From IMG/VR virus record IMGVR_UViG_3300034520_000378: 64,000 nucleotides of DNA; one strand, 5' to 3'. This DNA is from a virus. The notes beneath the pieces are model-generated. The model did no database searches and was not told the origin of the DNA. It saw only the letters and a list, made by a program, of their open reading frames with translations. The position numbers were made by a program, and so were the translations under genes. Position 1 is the first letter of the stretch; each line of letters starts with the position of its first letter. This document shows, one piece after another, positions 3,611 through 64,000 of the stretch.

Positions 3611-4849
3611 TTACCTGAGTAACTGCAGTACCGCCTGAGGTAGCTGATTGGCCTGGGCAAGCATGGCCGTTGCAGCTTGCTGCAGGATACTCTGCTTGGT
3701 GAATTCCATCATTTCCTTTGCCATGTCTACGTCGCGGATGCGGGACTCGGCTGCGGTCAGGTTTTCGGCTGCTACGGATAGGTTGTTGATGGTATGTTCG
3801 AGGCGGTTCTGGTATGCACCAAGTTTGGAACGTTCTGCAGATACCGTATCAATTGCAGCTTGAATTTTAGTAACCGCATTAGCGGCGTTGGTGGCATTGC
3901 TTACATCTAAAGCGTACTCTACAGCTGTATTATTTGTTCCGTTAGTTACAGTCATGCTTGAAGTAAACCCACTACTACCCGTGTTGCTACTAATGCCCAA
4001 GGCAGACGCCCGCATGTCAGATAGATCCAGAGTCATAGTCTGGTTTTCATTAGCACCGATTTGCATTATAAAAGAAGAAGATTTAGCAGGAGTCGGGTTA
4101 TAAATACCTGGTGTTAAACCTATTGCTGATAGACTACCTGAGGTAGGAGTTTTAATTTCAATGCTGTCGGTAGTATTGCTTGCGGTAATCACTAACGCAT
4201 TGCCGCTCTTAGTAACAGTTGCGGCACCCGATAAGGCTGTATTTAGATCGGTGACCAAGGTATCAATGGTATTAGTTGACCCATCATAATTCTTGTTCAA
4301 GGCAACGGTCTTTGTTGTACCGCCTATAACAACATCAAAAACCAAGTTTGTAGTAGAAAAATCTGTACTTGTGCCCAAAGTGATGGTAGTACCAGTTACA
4401 GTAGCCGCTGTTCCCGCTGTTACCGTACCTGCCGTAGCATTAAGAAGTTTCTGGGTGTTAAATTCTGTAGTATTGGCTATGCGGTTGATTTCAGATGTAA
4501 GTTGGTTAATTTCCTTCTGGATTTCTGCACGGTCTTTATCGGTATTGGTATCATTACCAGCCTGGATAGCCAATTCCCTCATACGTTGGAGAATGCTGTG
4601 GACTTCGTTCAGCGCACCTTCGGCAGTCTGTATCATAGAAATAGCATCTTGGGCATTTCGTACCGATTGATTTAAACCTCTAATCTGAGCGCGCATCTTC
4701 TCGCTTATCGCCAGACCTGCCGCATCATCGCCGGCACGATTAATCCTGAGGCCCGATGAGAGTTTCTCCAGCGACTTCTGAAGTGAAGAGTTGTTGATGG
4801 AAAGCTGCCTGTACGCATTAAGCGCACTTATGTTTTGGTTAATCCTCAT
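3611..4849 (-). CDS. fliC: flagellin
   Basis: N-terminal MRINQNISALNA..LEKLSSGLRINRAGDDAAGLAISEKMRAQ and C-terminal RIRDVDMAKEM..QANQLPQAVLQLLR; Thr/Ser-rich variable core. Confidence 0.98.
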   Translation of the reverse strand: MRINQNISALNAYRQLSINNSSLQKSLEKLSSGLRINRAGDDAAGLAISEKMRAQIRGLNQSVRNAQDAISMIQTAEGALNEVHSILQRMRELAIQAGNDTNTDKDRAEIQKEINQLTSEINRIANTTEFNTQKLLNATAGTVTAGTAATVTGTTITLGTSTDFSTTNLVFDVVIGGTTKTVALNKNYDGSTNTIDTLVTDLNTALSGAATVTKSGNALVITASNTTDSIEIKTPTSGSLSAIGLTPGIYNPTPAKSSSFIMQIGANENQTMTLDLSDMRASALGISSNTGSSGFTSSMTVTNGTNNTAVEYALDVSNATNAANAVTKIQAAIDTVSAERSKLGAYQNRLEHTINNLSVAAENLTAAESRIRDVDMAKEMMEFTKQSILQQAATAMLAQANQLPQAVLQLLR

Positions 4850-35515: not shown

Positions 35516-36196
35516 TTACTTGTTCCCGAGCAGCTCTGCAATCTTCGCCCATGTTAGCGGCCCCACGATACCGTCCGCTACCAGCCCGTACTTCTTCTGG
35601 AACGCCTTAACGGCGGCCTGGGTCTTGGGACCGAATATGCCATCGGCTGCGCCGCAGTTGAACCCTAGACTGTTTAGCATCTCCTGCAGCTTCCTCACGG
35701 TTTCGCCCCGTGAACCCACCTTCAGCAGCATTGTCTTTGCCTTCTCTATCCATGTATTCTCAACTGCCTCCTTGACTTTGGCCAGCGGATAGTTCTTGCC
35801 CGGGCAGTTTGTGGCGGCAAGATCCCGGTGCCCCACGATCTTGGCGTTGGGATACTTCTTCTTGAGGTAGCGGACGAGTTCAATCAGGGCTGCACTCTGC
35901 TTCTCACCCATCTGTTCGACTTCGAAATTGCCTTCGCAGCAGATGCCTATGGATTTGCTGTTGTAGCCCTGGCAGTGGGCGCCCACTGTATTCTCGGGAC
36001 GCAGGCTGTACACGGTACCGTCCTTACGGACAAAGTAATGGTATCCAGCACCGGCCCAGCCTCTCTTGAGGTGCCATTCATGTATATCCTCTGGACTGCA
36101 CACAGAGGCTGCAGCGTGATGCAAGACGATGTACTGGGTTGACGATCTACGACTTAAGTGATTCCTAAACTTAAGATTGGCATTTATGATTTGCAT
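35516..36196 (-). CDS. N-acetylmuramoyl-L-alanine amidase (Amidase_2) with PG-binding domain; putative endolysin
   Basis: IVLHH, GYHYFV, GAHC.GYN, GHRD...CPG; DGIFGPKT..AVKAFQ...DGIVGPLTW. Confidence 0.92.
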   Translation of the reverse strand: MQIINANLKFRNHLSRRSSTQYIVLHHAAASVCSPEDIHEWHLKRGWAGAGYHYFVRKDGTVYSLRPENTVGAHCQGYNSKSIGICCEGNFEVEQMGEKQSAALIELVRYLKKKYPNAKIVGHRDLAATNCPGKNYPLAKVKEAVENTWIEKAKTMLLKVGSRGETVRKLQEMLNSLGFNCGAADGIFGPKTQAAVKAFQKKYGLVADGIVGPLTWAKIAELLGNK

Positions 36197-50237: not shown

Positions 50238-53200
50238 GTGTTGCCGATACTCTATGTCCCGACCCACGTCCATACCGCATTCAGCGTCCTCGATGGCCTC
50301 GCCAAGACTGAAGATCTGGTTGCCAAGGCAAAAGAGTTCGGCATGCCAGCCATTGCGGTGACGGACCATCGCAACACCGCTGCGCATGTGAAGTTCTACA
50401 GGGTATGTCAGGAGGCGGAAATAAAACCCCTGCTCGGCGTTGAGCTGAATGAAGCTGACGACAGGCTGCTGCACTCCCGTAAAGCGCGTCAGGAAAGAGG
50501 CTACGATGACTACCACATCATCATGATTGCCAAGAACCAGGAAGGCTACAAAAACCTCATGGAGATAGTCTCGGACGCCTCTACTGCGGGCTACTTTGAC
50601 AAGACCGAGCAGACAGACATGACGGTCCTCCGCGAGCGCGGCAGGGGAATTATAGCCACTTCGGCGTGCCTGGCCGGCCGCATCCCGCGGTACATCCTCC
50701 AAAACAGGCTGGACGATGCCGAGCGATGGATATCCGACTTCAAGGAAGTCTTCGACCAGTTCTATCTGGAGATTCAGCCAAACTCCCTGCCGGAGCAGGC
50801 TGTAGTAAACGAAGCGCTCATTCAGCTTGCACGCAAGACGAACACGCCGCTCATTCTTGGCACTGACGTGCACTATGTGAACCGCGAGGACGCCTTTGCA
50901 CAGGACATTCTATTGTGTATCCAGACAGGCAAGAAGCTCAAAGACCAGGATCGTCTCAAGTTCAACGGAGATCCGGACTACTACATGTGGTCGCCGGAGG
51001 AGATAGACAAGTGGATTGCCGCCTCTTCCCTGCCTCATGATGCTCTGTATGAAGCTGTAGAGAACACTCTACGCGTTGCCGAAGAATGCGACGTCACACT
51101 GGATCTTGGCACGCACAAGATGCCAACGTTCAAGACACCGGACGGCTCAACGCCTGAAGACTATCTTACACGCATCTGCTACACCGAACTTGACCGCAGG
51201 TTTGCCGATCACCCCGATTACGGCACATACAAGGCACGGCTTGAGATGGAGCTGTCTGTCATAATTCCCAAAGGCTTTGCGAGCTACTTCCTCATACTGC
51301 AGGATATCCTGGACTACTGCAGACGTCAGGGTATACCGCGTGGCGGTGGGCGCGGCAGTGCGGCGGGATGCTTCGTAGCTTACCTGCTTGGGATAACAAC
51401 AATAGATCCGATACAGAACGGTCTATTGTTCGAGCGTTAGAGGATAGCGCTCGTTAAACTGGGTGAATTCGGGGAAACTCCCTTTAGGGACAACCCCGAG
51501 CCGAGCCTGGCCGGGCCCGGCGCAAGCCGGTGGTAGCCAGGAAGGTGTAGAGGCCAGCGGCTGAGTCCCAACGATAATGCCGCCACGAGCGCCCGGCACC
51601 GGAGTCCTCCGGTGATGATATGGTCCGACCTGCCTGGCAACAGGCAGAACCAGGAGATAAAAAGCTCCTGGGATAACATAAGTGTTCCTCAACCCCGAGC
51701 GCGTGAGCTTGCCCGACATTGATGTGGATATCAGTCACGAGCGTCGCGATGAGGTTATAGCCTACGTCCGCCAGACATACGGCCACGTTGCCCAAATAGC
51801 CACCTATTCCCTACTCCATCCCAAGAGTGCCGTCCGTGACATATGTCGCGTACTGGATCTTTCCTATTCTTATGCTGACATGCTCTCCAAGCTGGTGCCC
51901 GAGAAGATGCCAGACCAGTCCGAGGTAACGCTTGAGAAGTTCCTGCTCCCCGTAAACGACTTTGACAAGGCTGCCGAGAAGTGGGGACCGGCCGAGGCAA
52001 AAGCAATCAAGGCACAGGCCGAGCAGTTCCTCAAGGAAGCGCAGAAGCACCCGGAGATTATGAACATCCTCCACAAGATAGAAGGCTGTGTCCGCTCTGT
52101 AGGAATACACGCTGGTGGCGTCCTCATAGCTCCCACGGAGCTTACGGACTACTGCAGCCTTATTGCTTCTCCGGGCAAGGTCGTCTGTTCGCTCGATATG
52201 GAGGATGTCGATGTCTACGGCCTGCTGAAAGTCGACCTTCTCGGCTTAAAGACGGTGTCTATCATTTATCGAACAGCAGAAAGAGTTGGCGTTGACATAG
52301 ACAGTGTGCCGCTAGATGATCCTGCTGTCTACGAGCTCTACCAGAACGGTCAGACCCACGGTATATTCCAGCTGTCCGGTGATGGTATCACGAGGTATGC
52401 CAAGGAGGTGAAGCCGCGAGAGTTCTCGGACCTGGTTGACATATTGGCCCTTGCCTAGGTGGTAGGGGGCCGTTAAAGCGGGTAATATGCTGGGACGCCC
52501 TTAGAGTCCAACCGACGATACCGACCGGTGACGGATCGGCGACCCGTAAAACTGGTTGGAATTGGGCAATCAGCAGGCAAAGTACTGAGTCAGTCAGTAC
52601 TGGCCTCAGAGACTGCGGAGTATTCCGGCTCATGATTGGTGACAATCATGAGTATCCCCGCTAGGCCTCTAAGGAGGCCGAATGATACAGTCCGAACCCT
52701 AGGCGAAAGCTTAGGGAGTCAGGCAGAAATGACCTGACCTTCCAGGGCCATAGCTAGGCGTTGTCTAAGCCATTCTTCAGTTATTGGTTCATCGTACCGT
52801 ATAACTAACAGTTTTAATCCATGGGCACTAATTAGTTTCTGCTTAATATAGTCCCGATACTTTCTGACCTTGAACTTCTCTAGCTCGTCTTCACCGAAGC
52901 GTTCTGTTTGCGGTATATAGTGTTGCTCACCATTGTACTCTATGCATAGTTTATAGGCTGGAAAGTAAGCATCAACATAGAGCTTACGTCCCGTTTTAGG
53001 GTTAACTAGCCATGGAAATGACTTCTCCAGGATATAGGTGCTATTGAGAATCTTGGCTATTTTCTCTATAATGATTCGCGCTGTTACTGGATTGCCTGGT
53101 ATTCGATCTTCTAGTCCGGCAGCTCTGTAAGCATTATTAAGAGAGCCGAATCTGCGCATGAATGTCTCAACTGAGTAGCGTGATGCCTCCTTAATGACCT

Positions 53201-56200
53201 TGTGAGAAACATACCCGTATTCGTCTTTGAGTCGTCTTAGCTCTTCAAGGAGGTGTTCTTCAGGAATGTTTATCTCACAGTTGATGGGTAGCCCAAGTTC
53301 TCTAAGCATGTTGTTAAAGCTTCCAAACAGGCGCTCTATAGGTTTGCGTGAATACTTGCCTTCTCGTAGATAGAGTTCTTTGGTGATGCGACCATGCTCC
53401 CTAAAGACTCTTAGGACGTCTTCAACTAGTTCTTCTCTTGTAATTGGCGTGGCCCTGTGAGACGCTTCTTTATGCGGCTCGAGACCAAGAAGGCGGTAGA
53501 CGTTTAGAAGTGATCCAAAGTGATCCTTATATGCCGTAGGTCCAAACCGCCCATGGTTGGCGATTATCTGATTGGTTACCTTACCGAATAGTTCGTAAAG
53601 CCGCAGGAATTCTTGTAGCAACTCTTCGTCGCTTATCTTTCCTTTATGCGGTGTTCTCACAGGACTCCGCCAGTTACGAGTTGAGATCCGTTTACTATCC
53701 TGTTTGTTAAGTTTAAGTTCTTCTGCAAGGCGCTTTATACCTCCGTACTTCTTCACTTGATAATACGTAAGTACGGGATGCTTCTGAATAAGCTCTTTGC
53801 TGATGTGCCCATGGGACTTGTAGATCTCATACAGATACCTGAGGACTTCTTCGCGAGTCATACCGTACTATACCTCCCATTGGTATTCTCATGGAGGTAT
53901 AGTACCTGGAACAAAACGTTCACATTGCCTAGCTATACCTGGATGTAACATAAAGCTACCGTCCAGGCCCACTCGACGCCGTAGTAGAAACAGGGCGCAC
54001 CATTGCAGAACAGTATATCTACAATCGTGAGCATCCAGATGAGATAACCTACCCGCACCCGGATTTGGAGGATATACTGAGGCCGACATACGGCGTTATG
54101 ATATACCAGGAGCAGGTGACTTCGTCGCCTGGCAGATACAGAAATGTATCTGCGTAGAACCGGGCAAAATCGGCGGAGCCAACATACCGTATCGTTTAGC
54201 AGGAGGAAAACGATATGTCCAAGAGCGCTTGTCATGACCCCGTCCGAGAGCAAGCAGTTGCATTATACAGCCAGGGATTACTTATTCGTGAAGTTGCCGA
54301 ACTGTTATCCCTTAAGCCCAGTACTGTCCAGTCGTGGATATCTAAGGCTGGTATAAGCAGACATCGTGGTCCCGCTTCTGGCGTGGTTAACGAAGATTAC
54401 TTCGATTACATTGATACAGAAGACAAAGCTTACTGGCTTGGTTGGCTTATGGCTGACAGCTGTATTAGCGTCTACAACGGACAGTACTCTCTTAAGATTC
54501 ACATAGCCATTGAAGATAGGATACTCATTGATACGTTTCTAAGGTTTATTAGATCAAGCAATAAGCCATGCATCAAGCAGTACCGAGGATGTACTTCATA
54601 CTACGTTAGTTTGACATCGCGCCACATGGTTGAGGCTCTAATAAGACATGGTGTAGTCCAAGGTAAATCGGCGCGTTGTTCTATTCCAGATATACCGCAA
54701 GACCTTGTTAGACATTTTGTACGCGGTTATTTTGATGGAGACGGTACGATTGAGACACGTGGCAAACGACGCAGGGCAGGGATAACAGGACATCCGCTTT
54801 TGCTTGAGCAAATTTTAGACATGATCATCCAGTCACACCCGTTAGAACGGTGTCCTAAAATATATCCTTCAACCGGAACATCTTACTTTCTCATTAGTAG
54901 GCGCCATGATTTAGAGATGTTTTATGACTATCTGTATGGAGATGCAACTATATGGCTTCCCAGGAAGCGCGATGCTTTTGTTGAAGCTCTTGGGCGTGGC
55001 AACGCCGAGGTAACCATCTAGCCTAAAAACAAGATGGCACCGTAACGCATAGAGGGTGAACCTGTGAGCACGAAATGTGCTCACAGAATATAATCCCTCC
55101 ACGAGTGTCCGGCACCCAAACCGTAAAGGTCGGTGGGTGAAAACGTATGCTGACCTGTGCCGAGTGGTATGGTAGGCACAGAACTAGAGGATAAAAAGCC
55201 TCTAGGGTAACAAAGTGGATGAACATTGCTAAGAAGCTTGCGGGCTACACTCTAGGTCAAGCGGACGCCCTAAGAAAACTTATAGCCAAAAAGAAGCTTG
55301 ATGAGCTTCCTGCAGCTCGTGCACAATTTGTCCAGGGCGGCGTAGCAAATGGTTATCCTGAAGAGCTGATGAACCAGCTCTTCGACCAAATAGAGAAGTT
55401 CGGTGGGTTGACAGAACAGCCCCCGTGCGGAGCAATCCGCACGTGCAAACCGGGTGAATTCAGGGGAAGCCTGAGATGGTCACCCTGAGCCAAGCCCAGC
55501 CAGGGGCCCGATGGATAATCGGTGGCGGCTGGGAAGGTGCAACGACCAGGACGTGCGTCCCCGACAATAAGCGTTCCTCGAGCGCCCGGCATCCCTCTGG
55601 GATGATGATATGGTCTAGCCCAACGGGAAATGAACCGTTGGTAGGAGCGATGCCTTCAACAAGTCCCATTCCGCAGCGTACGCATACCTGTCATACCAAA
55701 CGGCCTATCTCAAAGCACATTACCCGGTAGAGTTCATGGCCGAGTTGATGTCAAGCGATGTGGACAATCCCGATAAGCTGCTGGAGCACGTACAGGAGTG
55801 CCGCAAGATGGGCATCCCGCTGCTCCCGGTAGACGTAAACCACAGTAAAGCGGAGTTCTCCATTGAGACTGTTGACATTGCAGGCCGCCCGGTCAAGGCA
55901 ATCAGGTACGCCTTAACCGGTATCAAGACCATAGGCCGCAGTGTAGCTGACGAGATTGTAGCGCACCAGCCGTACGAGTCGTTTGAAGACTTCGTGCAGA
56001 AGGTGCGCGGGCGGACGGTACACAAGAAGGTCATGCGCACGCTTATCCTTGCCGGTCTGTTTGACTGCTTTAAACCAAACAGGTACGCTCTTCTGCACAA
56101 GTACTACTTTGTGCTACGCAGAGAAAAGCCTGATGATGTCGACTGTCCTGATCCGGCTACATGGAGTGATTCAGCTAAATATAGTCTTGATCAAGAGTCT

Positions 56201-56623
56201 TACGGTTTTGCGCTGTCTGGCCATCCTGCAGAATCGTATCCATGTCACTATCCACCTGCTGTACCGTACGATAGGCCGTTCTACATTTCCGGAGTTATCA
56301 CTGACGTAATCGTGGACAAGGACAAGCAGGGGCGGCAGATGGCCAAGGTGCGGCTCGATACGCCATTTGGTCTGTATGCCATAAGATTCTACTACCGCCA
56401 GTGGCAGCGCTACAGGTCGCTCGTCAATCAGATACGTCAGCTCGACCTGCCGCTTGTCACCATCAAGGTTAGGAAGACACGGTACATGTCACATGACATC
56501 ATCGAAGCGGTCCATGTGCTTGTGCCAGAGGAAGCACAGCGGATGTGGCAGGAGTATCTTGACAGCTGCTTTAACGTTCACACGGTCCTGCGCTCGAGCC
56601 GCCTTGTGCGATTCTACGCGTGA
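50238..56623 (+). CDS. dnaE: DNA polymerase III alpha, five exons: 50238-51437, 51685-52451, 53956-54117, 55218-55408, 55650-56623 (1097 aa spliced)
   Basis: PHP motifs, GRGSAAG, FER|FLNPER..PDIDVD, AL|YRPGP, YQEQV|M, GY|AFNKSH all restored; exon total 3294 nt in frame. Confidence 0.95.
51438..51684 (+). ncRNA. group I intron 1 in dnaE (ORF-less, 247 nt)
   Basis: exon ends in U, intron ends in G; P1 GAGCGU/GCGCUC; core GAAUUCGGGGAA..CCCCGAGCC..AGAGGCCA..GAUAUGGUCC. Confidence 0.9.
52452..53955 (+). ncRNA. group I intron 2 in dnaE (1504 nt) with antisense ORF
   Basis: P1 GGCCCU/GGGGCC; P AUGCUGGGA, Q AAUCAGCAGG, R UCAGAGACUG, S GAUACAGUCC; terminal G. Confidence 0.9.
52719..53861 (-). CDS. 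putative homing endonuclease: tandem helical repeats plus C-terminal Vsr-like PD-(D/E)xK domain
   Basis: four ~65-aa repeats (FGS..N...LGL); [19 protein letters not shown]; GGGAGG RBS. Confidence 0.8.
   Translation of the reverse strand: MTREEVLRYLYEIYKSHGHISKELIQKHPVLTYYQVKKYGGIKRLAEELKLNKQDSKRISTRNWRSPVRTPHKGKISDEELLQEFLRLYELFGKVTNQIIANHGRFGPTAYKDHFGSLLNVYRLLGLEPHKEASHRATPITREELVEDVLRVFREHGRITKELYLREGKYSRKPIERLFGSFNNMLRELGLPINCEINIPEEHLLEELRRLKDEYGYVSHKVIKEASRYSVETFMRRFGSLNNAYRAAGLEDRIPGNPVTARIIIEKIAKILNSTYILEKSFPWLVNPKTGRKLYVDAYFPAYKLCIEYNGEQHYIPQTERFGEDELEKFKVRKYRDYIKQKLISAHGLKLLVIRYDEPITEEWLRQRLAMALEGQVISA
54118..55217 (+). ncRNA. group I intron 3 in dnaE (1100 nt) with LAGLIDADG ORF
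   Basis: P1 CAGGU/GCCUG; AAAAUCGGCGGA..ACGCCGAGG..AACGCAUA..CGUAUGCUG core; 3' hairpin shared with intron 1; terminal G. Confidence 0.9.
54215..55021 (+). CDS. LAGLIDADG homing endonuclease with N-terminal HTH
   Basis: [12 protein letters not shown] and [11 protein letters not shown] motifs. Confidence 0.88.
   Translation: MSKSACHDPVREQAVALYSQGLLIREVAELLSLKPSTVQSWISKAGISRHRGPASGVVNEDYFDYIDTEDKAYWLGWLMADSCISVYNGQYSLKIHIAIEDRILIDTFLRFIRSSNKPCIKQYRGCTSYYVSLTSRHMVEALIRHGVVQGKSARCSIPDIPQDLVRHFVRGYFDGDGTIETRGKRRRAGITGHPLLLEQILDMIIQSHPLERCPKIYPSTGTSYFLISRRHDLEMFYDYLYGDATIWLPRKRDAFVEALGRGNAEVTI
55409..55649 (+). ncRNA. group I intron 4 in dnaE (ORF-less, 241 nt)
   Basis: P1 GGGU/GCCC; core similar to intron 1 (GGGUGAAUUC, GAGCGCCCGGCA, GAUAUGGUC); terminal G. 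Confidence 0.9.
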
Positions 56624-63102: not shown

Positions 63103-63385
63103 GTCAACCACCCCCGACTGAAGTCGGAGACATGTAGGCCTCGTGGTTGACCAGCCTGAGTACCTGACCCGAAGGACAAGGGGATGATGGTACTACGTTG
63201 GCAGCAGGTCAAAGACCCACTCCGGGATGCTCCTCCAGTCCCGGACTCTGGAAGTGCCGGTTGCAGACAACCTTCGGGGTGTGGGCGAAACGGACCGGCA
63301 CAAGTGCCGGTTGCCAACATTGGCGAGGAGGGCGCCGGGGAGAGTCCGCCCCGGCGCGTCACCAGGCCCGTAAGGGTACTCCGAA
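63103..63385 (+). ncRNA. omega-RNA (HEARO-type) scaffold of IscB element; 3' limit approximate
   Basis: GTCAACCACCCC..GGTTGACCAGCCTGAG..CTACGTT..GGATGCTCCTCCAGTCC..AACATTGGCGAGG directly before iscB. Confidence 0.85.
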
Positions 63386-63398
63386 AGGAGTGGTGTAT

Positions 63399-64000
63399 AT
63401 GGTCTTTGTTTTGGACAAACACAAGAGACCACTGATGCCCTGTACTGAGAAGCGTGCCAGGTTGTTGCTGCGTCGCGGTAGGGCAGTGGTGCATAGGGTA
63501 CAACCATTCACCATTCGTTTGAAGGATAGAACAGTAGAACAAAGTCAACTTCAGCCACTGCGTCTCAAACTTGACCCAGGAGCGAAAGTTACAGGTGTAG
63601 CCGTATTACGAGAGGACAGCGAGGGTGAGGCTGAAACCGTATTGTTGGCCGAGATACACCACAAGACAAACATCAAGGCTAGCCTTGATACGCGCCGGGC
63701 CATCCGTCGTAGTCGCAGGAACCGCAAGACACGCTATCGCGAACCCCGGTTTCTGAACCGTAGGCGCTCGGAGGGGTGGCTACCGCCTTCACTCAAAGCT
63801 AGAGTTAATCAAACCTTGAGCGCAGTTAATAAACTCCTAAAGTTATTGCCGGTCACGGCTATTTCCACTGAACACGTTAAGTTTGACACTCAGAAGCTCC
63901 AGAACCCTGAGATTTCTGGTGTTGAATACCAGAGAGGTGCGCTCTTCGGTTATGAAATCAGAGAGTACCTCCTTGAAAAATGGGGTCGTAAATGTGCCTA
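63399..64000 (+). CDS. iscB: RNA-guided endonuclease IscB (truncated by window)
   Basis: manual translation MVFVLDKHKRPLMPC..LDPGAK..RRAIRRSRRNRKTRYR.PRFLNR..GWLPPSL..REYLLEKWGRKC. Confidence 0.93.
   Translation, partial: MVFVLDKHKRPLMPCTEKRARLLLRRGRAVVHRVQPFTIRLKDRTVEQSQLQPLRLKLDPGAKVTGVAVLREDSEGEAETVLLAEIHHKTNIKASLDTRRAIRRSRRNRKTRYREPRFLNRRRSEGWLPPSLKARVNQTLSAVNKLLKLLPVTAISTEHVKFDTQKLQNPEISGVEYQRGALFGYEIREYLLEKWGRKCA

Follow-up and report, generated by a model that had tools for sequence, protein, structure and literature searches.

Introduction

Accounts of group I introns in phages and bacteria treat the nuclease gene as a sense-strand passenger, the translation of which has to be reconciled with folding of the ribozyme. 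This report concerns a 64,000-nucleotide stretch of viral DNA, IMG/VR record IMGVR_UViG_3300034520_000378 (the window), in which a group I intron in dnaE, the gene for the alpha subunit of DNA polymerase III, carries a homing nuclease gene (product P0001) on the opposite strand. What is new here is that the homologous nuclease gene occurs in both orientations in homologous introns at one dnaE codon, being sense, within the same peripheral loop, in eight or more other phage lineages. There is good reason for confidence that the intron is real, that its antisense nuclease gene, lying in a loop closed by a stem, is maintained, and that the arrangement recurs in the family.

Antisense nuclease genes are known from group I introns of nuclear ribosomal DNA (rDNA), in which His-Cys box enzymes are encoded by Dir.S956-2 of Didymium iridis (I-DirII) and Dsq.L2066 of Diderma squamulosum (I-DsqI) (PMC9548176, PMC3073962). 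As in the window, the gene lies in an extension of P9 or P9.2 (P9.2 in Dsq.L2066), is antisense to both ribozyme and host gene, and needs an internal promoter. Sense and antisense versions occur at one insertion site in related species, as they do in the family of the window intron. The rDNA introns are nevertheless eukaryotic, with a Pol II promoter, polyadenylation, a spliceosomal intron within the gene, an rRNA host and His-Cys box enzymes, whereas the window has a phage protein-coding host gene, a bacterial-type ribosome-binding site (RBS) and a Vsr-fold enzyme. The text searched contains no discussion of an inversion mechanism for the rDNA introns.

For group I introns of bacteria and phages, a literature search that covered few subscription journals brought up no antisense nuclease gene. 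None is described in the 2014 review of bacterial group I introns, which makes no mention of orientation, in a survey of the Bacillus cereus group or in two papers on the Vsr-like family; the word antisense does not occur in three of these four texts, and in the fourth it refers to unrelated matters. The literature searched thus agrees with the preliminary description of the window, which had regarded antisense homing nuclease genes as mainly eukaryotic: its group I cases are confined to nuclear rDNA introns. A review of phage T4 mentions a single antisense nuclease gene, the free-standing segD (PMC2988022). Like the window gene, segD is a phage homing nuclease gene transcribed against its neighbours (genes 23 and 24); it is, however, an intergenic GIY-YIG gene with no identified promoter, and its transcript levels may be vanishingly low (PMC2988022).

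T4 also offers a parallel for expression, since control by a hairpin and a late promoter is described there for I-TevI and for the lysozyme gene e, among others (PMC2988022). The td intron gene for I-TevI, together with I-TevII, I-TevIII, segB and Aeh1 mobE, resembles the window gene in having its Shine-Dalgarno sequence within a stable hairpin (PMC2988022). In both I-TevI and the window a promoter-like element is so placed that transcripts from it would lack the upstream arm of the hairpin, and the distal end of the open reading frame (ORF) overlaps the ribozyme. The I-TevI ORF is sense, however, and its silent long transcripts are the host-gene pre-mRNAs. The window ORF is antisense, its ribosomes would never touch the ribozyme RNA, and its putative promoter is taken from a motif seen at two sites.

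The enzyme itself is most readily compared with I-Bth0305I, encoded in a recA group I intron of Bacillus phage 0305phi8-36 and a member of the EDxHD family (PMC3239194). Vsr-like homing endonucleases are also known from fractured genes, including dnaE, in ocean metagenomes (PMC2677866). I-Bth0305I and P0001 both combine N-terminal helical DNA-binding repeats with a C-terminal Vsr-fold nuclease domain, and in both a spacing of 17 residues separates the metal-binding Asp from the general-base His. The I-Bth0305I family and P0001 share an association with phage DNA-metabolism genes and group I introns, and a hairpin just upstream of the ORF. The repeats differ, being two NUMOD motifs in I-Bth0305I and four copies of Pfam HNH_repeat in P0001. 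Furthermore, the I-Bth0305I ORF lies in the P1 loop and is not described as antisense in the papers searched, in contrast to the P9-distal, antisense position of the P0001 gene.

The intron and its ribozyme

In the window, dnaE extends over 50238-56623 on the plus strand and is split into several exons. Exon 2 (51682-52451, plus) encodes the NTPase domain and the start of the finger domain (Pfam DNA_pol3_alpha, 2.3e-43; DNA_pol3_finger, 3.3e-15; PHROG 405, DNA polymerase). It terminates in ...DILAL, the Leu codon being split CT|C, and an in-frame TAG lies two codons inside the 1504-nt intron that follows (52452-53955, plus). Exon 3 (53956-54117, plus, the 3' end approximate) is recognised by its translation, YRPGPLD...YQEQV. 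Joining of the exons yields GCC CTC TAC CGT CCA and a protein reading ...DILAL YRPGPLD..., a conserved motif of the finger domain (AL|YRPGP).

The splice sites are marked by an internal guide sequence, GGUAGGGGGCC (52461-52471, plus), which pairs with both exons. In P1, exon nucleotides GGCCCU (52446-52451) pair with guide nucleotides GGGGCC (52466-52471), placing a U-G pair at the 5' splice site after U52451. P10 is formed by CUACC of the 3' exon (53956-53960) with GGUAG (52461-52465), immediately 5' of the P1 guide. Guide and exon co-vary in relatives (UGCCCU/GGGGCA, GUCCCU/GGGGAC and AUCCCU/GGGGAU). The last base of the intron is the terminal G53955, with which a conserved 3' tail, GUAACAUAAAG (53945-53955, plus), ends; a UAACA...G tail is also present at the related loci L002, L003, L012 and L013. 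P1, P10 and the terminal G uphold the intron bounds given in the preliminary description, and the intronless junction that it predicted is the one obtained by joining the exons.

The ribozyme core, P3 to P9, occupies 52477-52716 (plus). It is delineated by the Rfam alignment, by the minimum free energy fold with the loop removed, by RNAalifold covariation in its 3' half and by a family-specific covariance model, R1, which matches it with 125 bits. P9, with a GAAA loop, is at 52697-52716, and two additional hairpins lie between P7 and P3' (52616-52627 and 52628-52653), as in subgroup IA introns. When seven introns are aligned over the 3' half of the core, the consensus has 24 pairs, all but three of which (21/24) are changed on both sides in at least one sequence. 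Covariation was seen by RNAalifold in P9, in P7.2 and in a peripheral hairpin described below. The Rfam Intron_gpI model matches the intron locally, and homologous introns occupy the same codon. Positions 52452-53955 hold a mobile group I intron that interrupts the finger-domain part of a phage dnaE gene and is predicted from its sequence to be self-splicing.

The antisense nuclease

The 380-residue ORF noticed on the opposite strand in the preliminary description is a real gene (52719-53861, minus), encoding a homing endonuclease, P0001, made up of HNH_repeat modules and a Vsr-fold domain. Pfam PF18780 (HNH_repeat) matches three stretches of the protein (2.7e-30, 104.9 bits against a cut-off of 26). 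In an AlphaFold2 (AF2) model with a predicted local distance difference test score (pLDDT) of 82 there are four four-helix repeats, at residues about 1-56, 78-134, 142-190 and 201-250. These are followed at residues 256-377 by a C-terminal alpha/beta domain which has the Vsr fold in the model and matches Vsr itself (1cw0; Z 11.4, root-mean-square deviation 2.6, 112 residues) and the catalytic domain of I-Bth0305I (3r3p; Z 9.6, 96 of 97 residues, 21% identity). The four helical repeats and Vsr-like domain proposed earlier are thus borne out by HNH_repeat, by the model and by the fold matches. RAP/FASTK domains are also among the structure matches of the C-terminal domain, and PHROG nuclease families match the C-terminus. 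Residues E279, D297, E308, H314 and K340 are invariant among 15 relatives, and the spacing of 17 between D297 and H314 equals that of D196 and H213 in I-Bth0305I (PMC3239194). Fold and motif suggest a link between P0001 and the EDxHD or Vsr-like family.

Homologues of P0001 were found with a best E value of 5.5e-98, and relatives with 41-53% identity reside in phage dnaE genes. The ORF has a GC content of about 0.43, against 0.55 for the ribozyme core and flanks. The DNA of the nuclease gene is identical across all five copies, and assembly error is ruled out because the antisense arrangement is the same in four independent assemblies. Between P0001 and its closest relative, P0002, the ratio of nonsynonymous to synonymous substitution (dN/dS) is about 0.12 (pN 0.34; pS 0.74, saturated). 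These two closest antisense genes evolved under purifying selection. P0001 would cut intron-less dnaE near GCCCT|CTACCG and drive homing, the predicted target extending across TTGGCCCT|CTACCGTCCAGG.

Orientation of the gene in related introns

Five related loci (L002, L003, L006, L012 and L013) carry the nuclease gene in the sense orientation with dnaE, at the same codon as in the window and with intron cores homologous to that of the window. These genes start some 345 nt past the upstream exon and end 7-20 nt before the YRPGP exon, the start of which was placed by translation in L002, L003 and L006 and read from DNA in L012 and L013. P0002, at locus L014 and 53% identical to P0001, is also encoded antisense, behind the same core.

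L016, L018, L020, L024 and six further loci had no Rfam group I match with an E value of 0.01 or lower. Because Rfam misses these introns, the family-specific model R1, built on the 3' half of the core, was needed to place the core relative to the nuclease gene. The sense set according to R1 consists of the five loci named above, L015, L016, L020/L099, L098, Alicyclobacillus phage KKP_3916 and Thomasclavelia phages TR-TP1/2, of which the last two entries are cultured phages; the loci recorded with a sense gene in this type of intron include L096 and L097. The antisense set comprises the window, L014, L024, L017-19 and L100, representing four lineages against about eleven sense. The L024 gene is at the same YRPGP site, whilst those of L017-19 encode 554 residues, occupy a site about 75 codons upstream and are found on contigs of up to 379 kb. 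The L100 gene is a few codons downstream of the window site.

A tree of the nucleases unites the window protein and P0002 in a clade (98/99) that lies within a set of sense genes, and L018 groups with the sense genes of its own site. The approximately unbiased (AU) test rejects a single antisense clade for all four antisense rows in the tree (p 1e-6), and also rejects the window clade and L018 as one (p 0.001); L100 was found later and is absent from both tree and test. Comparison of these sequences indicates that the antisense state arose more than once, in at least two and probably in four lineages. Across the four antisense lineages the ORFs are full length and intact, with invariant catalytic residues. 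A Megablast search of the dnaE region against 50,697 phage records gave no match.

Several related loci differ in other ways. In L024 the next dnaE intron upstream (3941-4721, minus) has a member of this nuclease family in sense orientation, disrupted by a frameshift, and sense and antisense copies are thus found in adjacent introns of one gene. At L001 (3700-4960) the group I intron that carries a homologous nuclease gene (41% identity) is a different one (Rfam 59.6 bits), with its insertion site 6 nt downstream, at SLYR|PGP; between L001 and the window, the nuclease gene has moved between intron types with overlapping target sites. On the viral contigs L043 (2801-2947), L086 (2789-2932) and L060 (3318-3443) a core of the R1 type lies downstream of a Vsr-like nuclease gene, which may reside in a 5' loop or be free-standing ahead of the intron.

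The loop that holds the gene

The preliminary description took the ribozyme core to be finished by about position 52720, but two further structural elements come after it. One is a conserved peripheral hairpin, here termed P9.1 (52718-52738, plus; dG -15.3, z -3.7), with the form GUCAGG-CAGAAAUGA-CCUGAC. In seven introns its CAGAAAUGA loop is invariant and its stem is changed on both sides. The other is a long-range closing stem, P9.2, the 5' arm of which (52741-52764, plus) pairs with a 3' arm at 53922-53946 (plus). The energy of this pairing by RNAduplex is -34.5 kcal/mol, against -16.2 +/- 3.5 for shuffled sequences, and in the DNA the two arms form inverted repeat I4. Stems of unrelated sequence are found in the same two places in L002, L003 and L006 and in antisense L024 (read by eye), the closing stems of L003, L006, L012, L013 and L024 being accepted on position and contiguity alone; in L018 no closing stem was identified.

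The nuclease gene is the content of the terminal loop that follows P9 and the conserved hairpin, and an inverted repeat in the DNA bounds this loop. Gene and structure overlap at one end, where the last 14 codons of the ORF are the complement of the P9.1 hairpin and the 5' arm of the closing stem. The complement of the arm encodes RLAMALE, and that of the hairpin the final residues GQVISA and the stop.

Expression of the antisense gene

As described previously, the RBS of the nuclease gene is within a perfect 13-bp hairpin (53865-53905; dG -21.4 kcal/mol, z -3.3), which corresponds to inverted repeat I5 and is 100% complementary. The Shine-Dalgarno sequence, GGGAGG (53878-53873, minus), belongs to the 3' arm and precedes the ATG at 53861 by 11 nt. 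A Shine-Dalgarno sequence is present in every antisense copy tested, L100 being outside this test. The earlier view that the gene needs its own transcription also stands, since it has its own Shine-Dalgarno sequence and minus-strand transcription is required.

A candidate for the promoter is the motif AGGTACTATAC (53897-53907, minus), with a -10-like TACTAT, which falls within the 5' arm of the RBS hairpin, its start being 46 nt ahead of the ATG. Its generalised form, AGGTAYTATAC, has two exact matches in the window, both on the minus strand and both 46 nt before an ATG. The second (36242-36232, minus) is ahead of the endolysin gene (35516-36196, minus). The rough chance probability of a match of such quality at the same offset between two 100-nt regions, calculated post hoc, is near 1e-3. 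The endolysin, an amidase, is encoded in a block of plus-strand replication genes, in which it is the only other confirmed minus-strand gene.

In the proposed scheme the nuclease gene would be transcribed alone from the -10-like element. Transcription from about 53892 would leave out the hairpin's 5' arm, so that the RBS would be exposed and the transcript translatable, whilst longer minus-strand transcripts would be silent, their Shine-Dalgarno sequence being sequestered. Such control by promoter and hairpin, analogous to that of I-TevI, is a tentative possibility. If the motif is a late promoter, dnaE pre-mRNA and antisense mRNA may be largely separated in time, and the mutual antagonism of mobility and splicing suggested in the preliminary description would therefore be weakened.

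Three similar boxes, CCAGGTATAGCTAGG, CCAGGTACTATACCT and GGAGGTATAGTACGG, are present upstream of the nuclease gene (53863-53943, minus), one in an arm of the closing stem, one coinciding with the promoter-like motif and one at the RBS. They allow an alternative pairing of 53890-53902 with 53933-53945 (inverted repeat I6), and may be operator sites or a structural switch. The homing site was also compared by eye with the sequence ahead of the ORF for an operator-like likeness, which amounted to about 7-8 of 15 bases and was dropped.

Origin of the antisense state and alternative explanations

The loop content would be inverted in place, with ribozyme and stem kept intact, if recombination or template switching took place from one arm of the closing stem to the other. 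Inversion would put the last codons of the ORF, formerly in the 3' arm, into the complement of the 5' arm and drop the old stop, the ORF then reading into the hairpin complement and gaining the extra ...GQVISA. In the sense introns the last 2-7 codons are inside the 3' arm, and the stop is within or beside the tail. The homologous C-terminal stretch of P0001, RLAMALE, is encoded by the 5' arm's complement, followed by GQVISA and the stop, and this C-terminal extension is present in P0001 and P0002 only. Inversion is favoured because the stem, the ribozyme and the C-terminal codons have been kept but the stop has been lost, as breakpoints in the arms predict. On balance, in-place inversion of the loop content is a somewhat probable origin of the antisense state.

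A number of observations weigh against this interpretation or parts of it. ORFs which invade introns are known to extend distally into intron structure, from which their distal codons are often recruited (PMC2677866), and the overlap with the stem arm could have arisen after reverse insertion. The corresponding alternative is that a free-standing nuclease gene with its own promoter was inserted in reverse into the loop of an intron that was ORF-less from the start or through loss, the closing stem and the overlap with the hairpin coming later. The same nuclease family is found in the L001 intron, at other dnaE sites and, in fractured genes, as a free-standing form (PMC2677866), so that movement of the gene is not tied to the intron. 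In addition, the GC content of the ORF is below that of the core, and P0001 has an additional N-terminal repeat without counterpart in its closest sense relatives. Invasion by a free-standing gene was also the origin proposed in the preliminary description, but it is not favoured by the homologous sense genes (41-53% identity) in the same loop, codon and intron type, which are the nearest relatives of the antisense clade, nor by the inverted repeat that bounds the loop. The C-terminal residues encoded by the stem arm are homologous in either orientation, homologue searches found no free-standing copy of the antisense clade, and the recurrence of the flip is more easily explained by a built-in inverted repeat. 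Reverse insertion is accordingly considered rather unlikely, and in-place inversion is retained as the preferred origin.

Further adverse points concern the stems, the enzyme, its expression and the ribozyme. Closing-stem energies in the AT-rich relatives L006, L003, L012, L013, L024 and L018 do not differ significantly from those of shuffled sequences. The third acidic residue of the EDxHD motif, D222 in I-Bth0305I, has no clear counterpart in P0001, where a nearly invariant D337 lies further along. At the level of hidden Markov models, phmmer and a 15-sequence profile run against the Protein Data Bank gave noise matches only, with neither 3r3p nor any Vsr chain among the hits up to an E value of 10. 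The other antisense lineages have no such RBS hairpin, the shared promoter-like motif consists of two sites found after the fact, and a scan with the sigma-70 consensus gave no promoter upstream of the nuclease ORF. The want of a clear sigma-70 promoter and the sequestration of the RBS in a hairpin of -21 kcal/mol would suit a silent relic of accidental inversion, the intron persisting as a splicing element only. This is very unlikely given the intact, full-length ORFs and invariant catalytic residues of four antisense lineages, the low dN/dS between P0001 and P0002, which share the antisense junction, and the Shine-Dalgarno sequence in every antisense copy tested. With regard to the ribozyme, the Rfam Intron_gpI (RF00028) match to 52424-52715 scores 41.7 bits (E 1e-8 in a local search of 2.1 kb) against a gathering score of 50, at which threshold Rfam misses the intron. 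Together with the existence of fractured dnaE loci with Vsr-like nuclease genes (PMC2677866), this low score would fit a dnaE gene that is not spliced at all, its pieces being separate polypeptides with a free-standing nuclease gene between them. Exon 3, however, has about 54 codons and neither start codon nor RBS, and split-intein motifs are absent. Moreover, the geometry of P1, P10 and the terminal G is exact, the core is conserved with covariation, and in-frame joining of the exons gives the conserved ALYRPGP, all of which makes a fractured, unspliced gene extremely improbable.

Implications

Intron-borne homing nuclease genes of phages thus have a recurrent and apparently selectable antisense state, for which there is a plausible structural mechanism of flipping. 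The presence of both orientations at one codon amounts to a natural experiment on what it costs to translate an ORF within a ribozyme, and the bounded loop provides a simple structural reason why loop-borne cargo could flip without harm to splicing. The locus may also be an instance of an essential replication gene with antisense transcription running across it. Annotation pipelines, for which it is a warning, will record such loci as a split polymerase and, on the opposite strand, a hypothetical protein.

A bolder proposal is that the nuclease gene is a flippable cassette bounded by the inverted repeat of the RNA stem, with recurrent switching between a sense state, co-transcribed with dnaE, and an antisense state, in which it would have its own late-type promoter and an mRNA acting as a 1.1-kb antisense RNA to dnaE pre-mRNA. 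This is distinctly doubtful. If true, the cassette would uncouple translation of the nuclease from ribozyme folding, and the antisense mRNA could shut down polymerase expression late in infection.

Neighbouring features

The genes around dnaE, which include helicases, a tRNA, TnpB and the endolysin, indicate a phage replication region. Two other group I introns of dnaE, at 51428-51647 and 55399-55633, score above the Rfam gathering threshold. The next dnaE intron after that of P0001 (approximately 54118-55218) contains a sense LAGLIDADG nuclease ORF (54215-55021, plus; Pfam LAGLIDADG_3, PHROG 4645 endonuclease) with an N-terminal helix-turn-helix; its ribozyme core was undetected by Rfam and by R1.

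Two other assemblies of the same phage, L008 and L010, show 20 differences from the window over 54621-56600, all between the LAGLIDADG ORF and the end of dnaE, and 0 differences in the 4.9 kb upstream, which includes the antisense gene. The boundary looks like the edge of a recombination or co-conversion event near a homing site. Finally, an Rfam HEARO RNA at 63103-63338 (plus, 101 bits) overlaps the start of an ORF (63198-63998) which runs off the end of the window, and the two together look like an element of the IscB/omega-RNA type.

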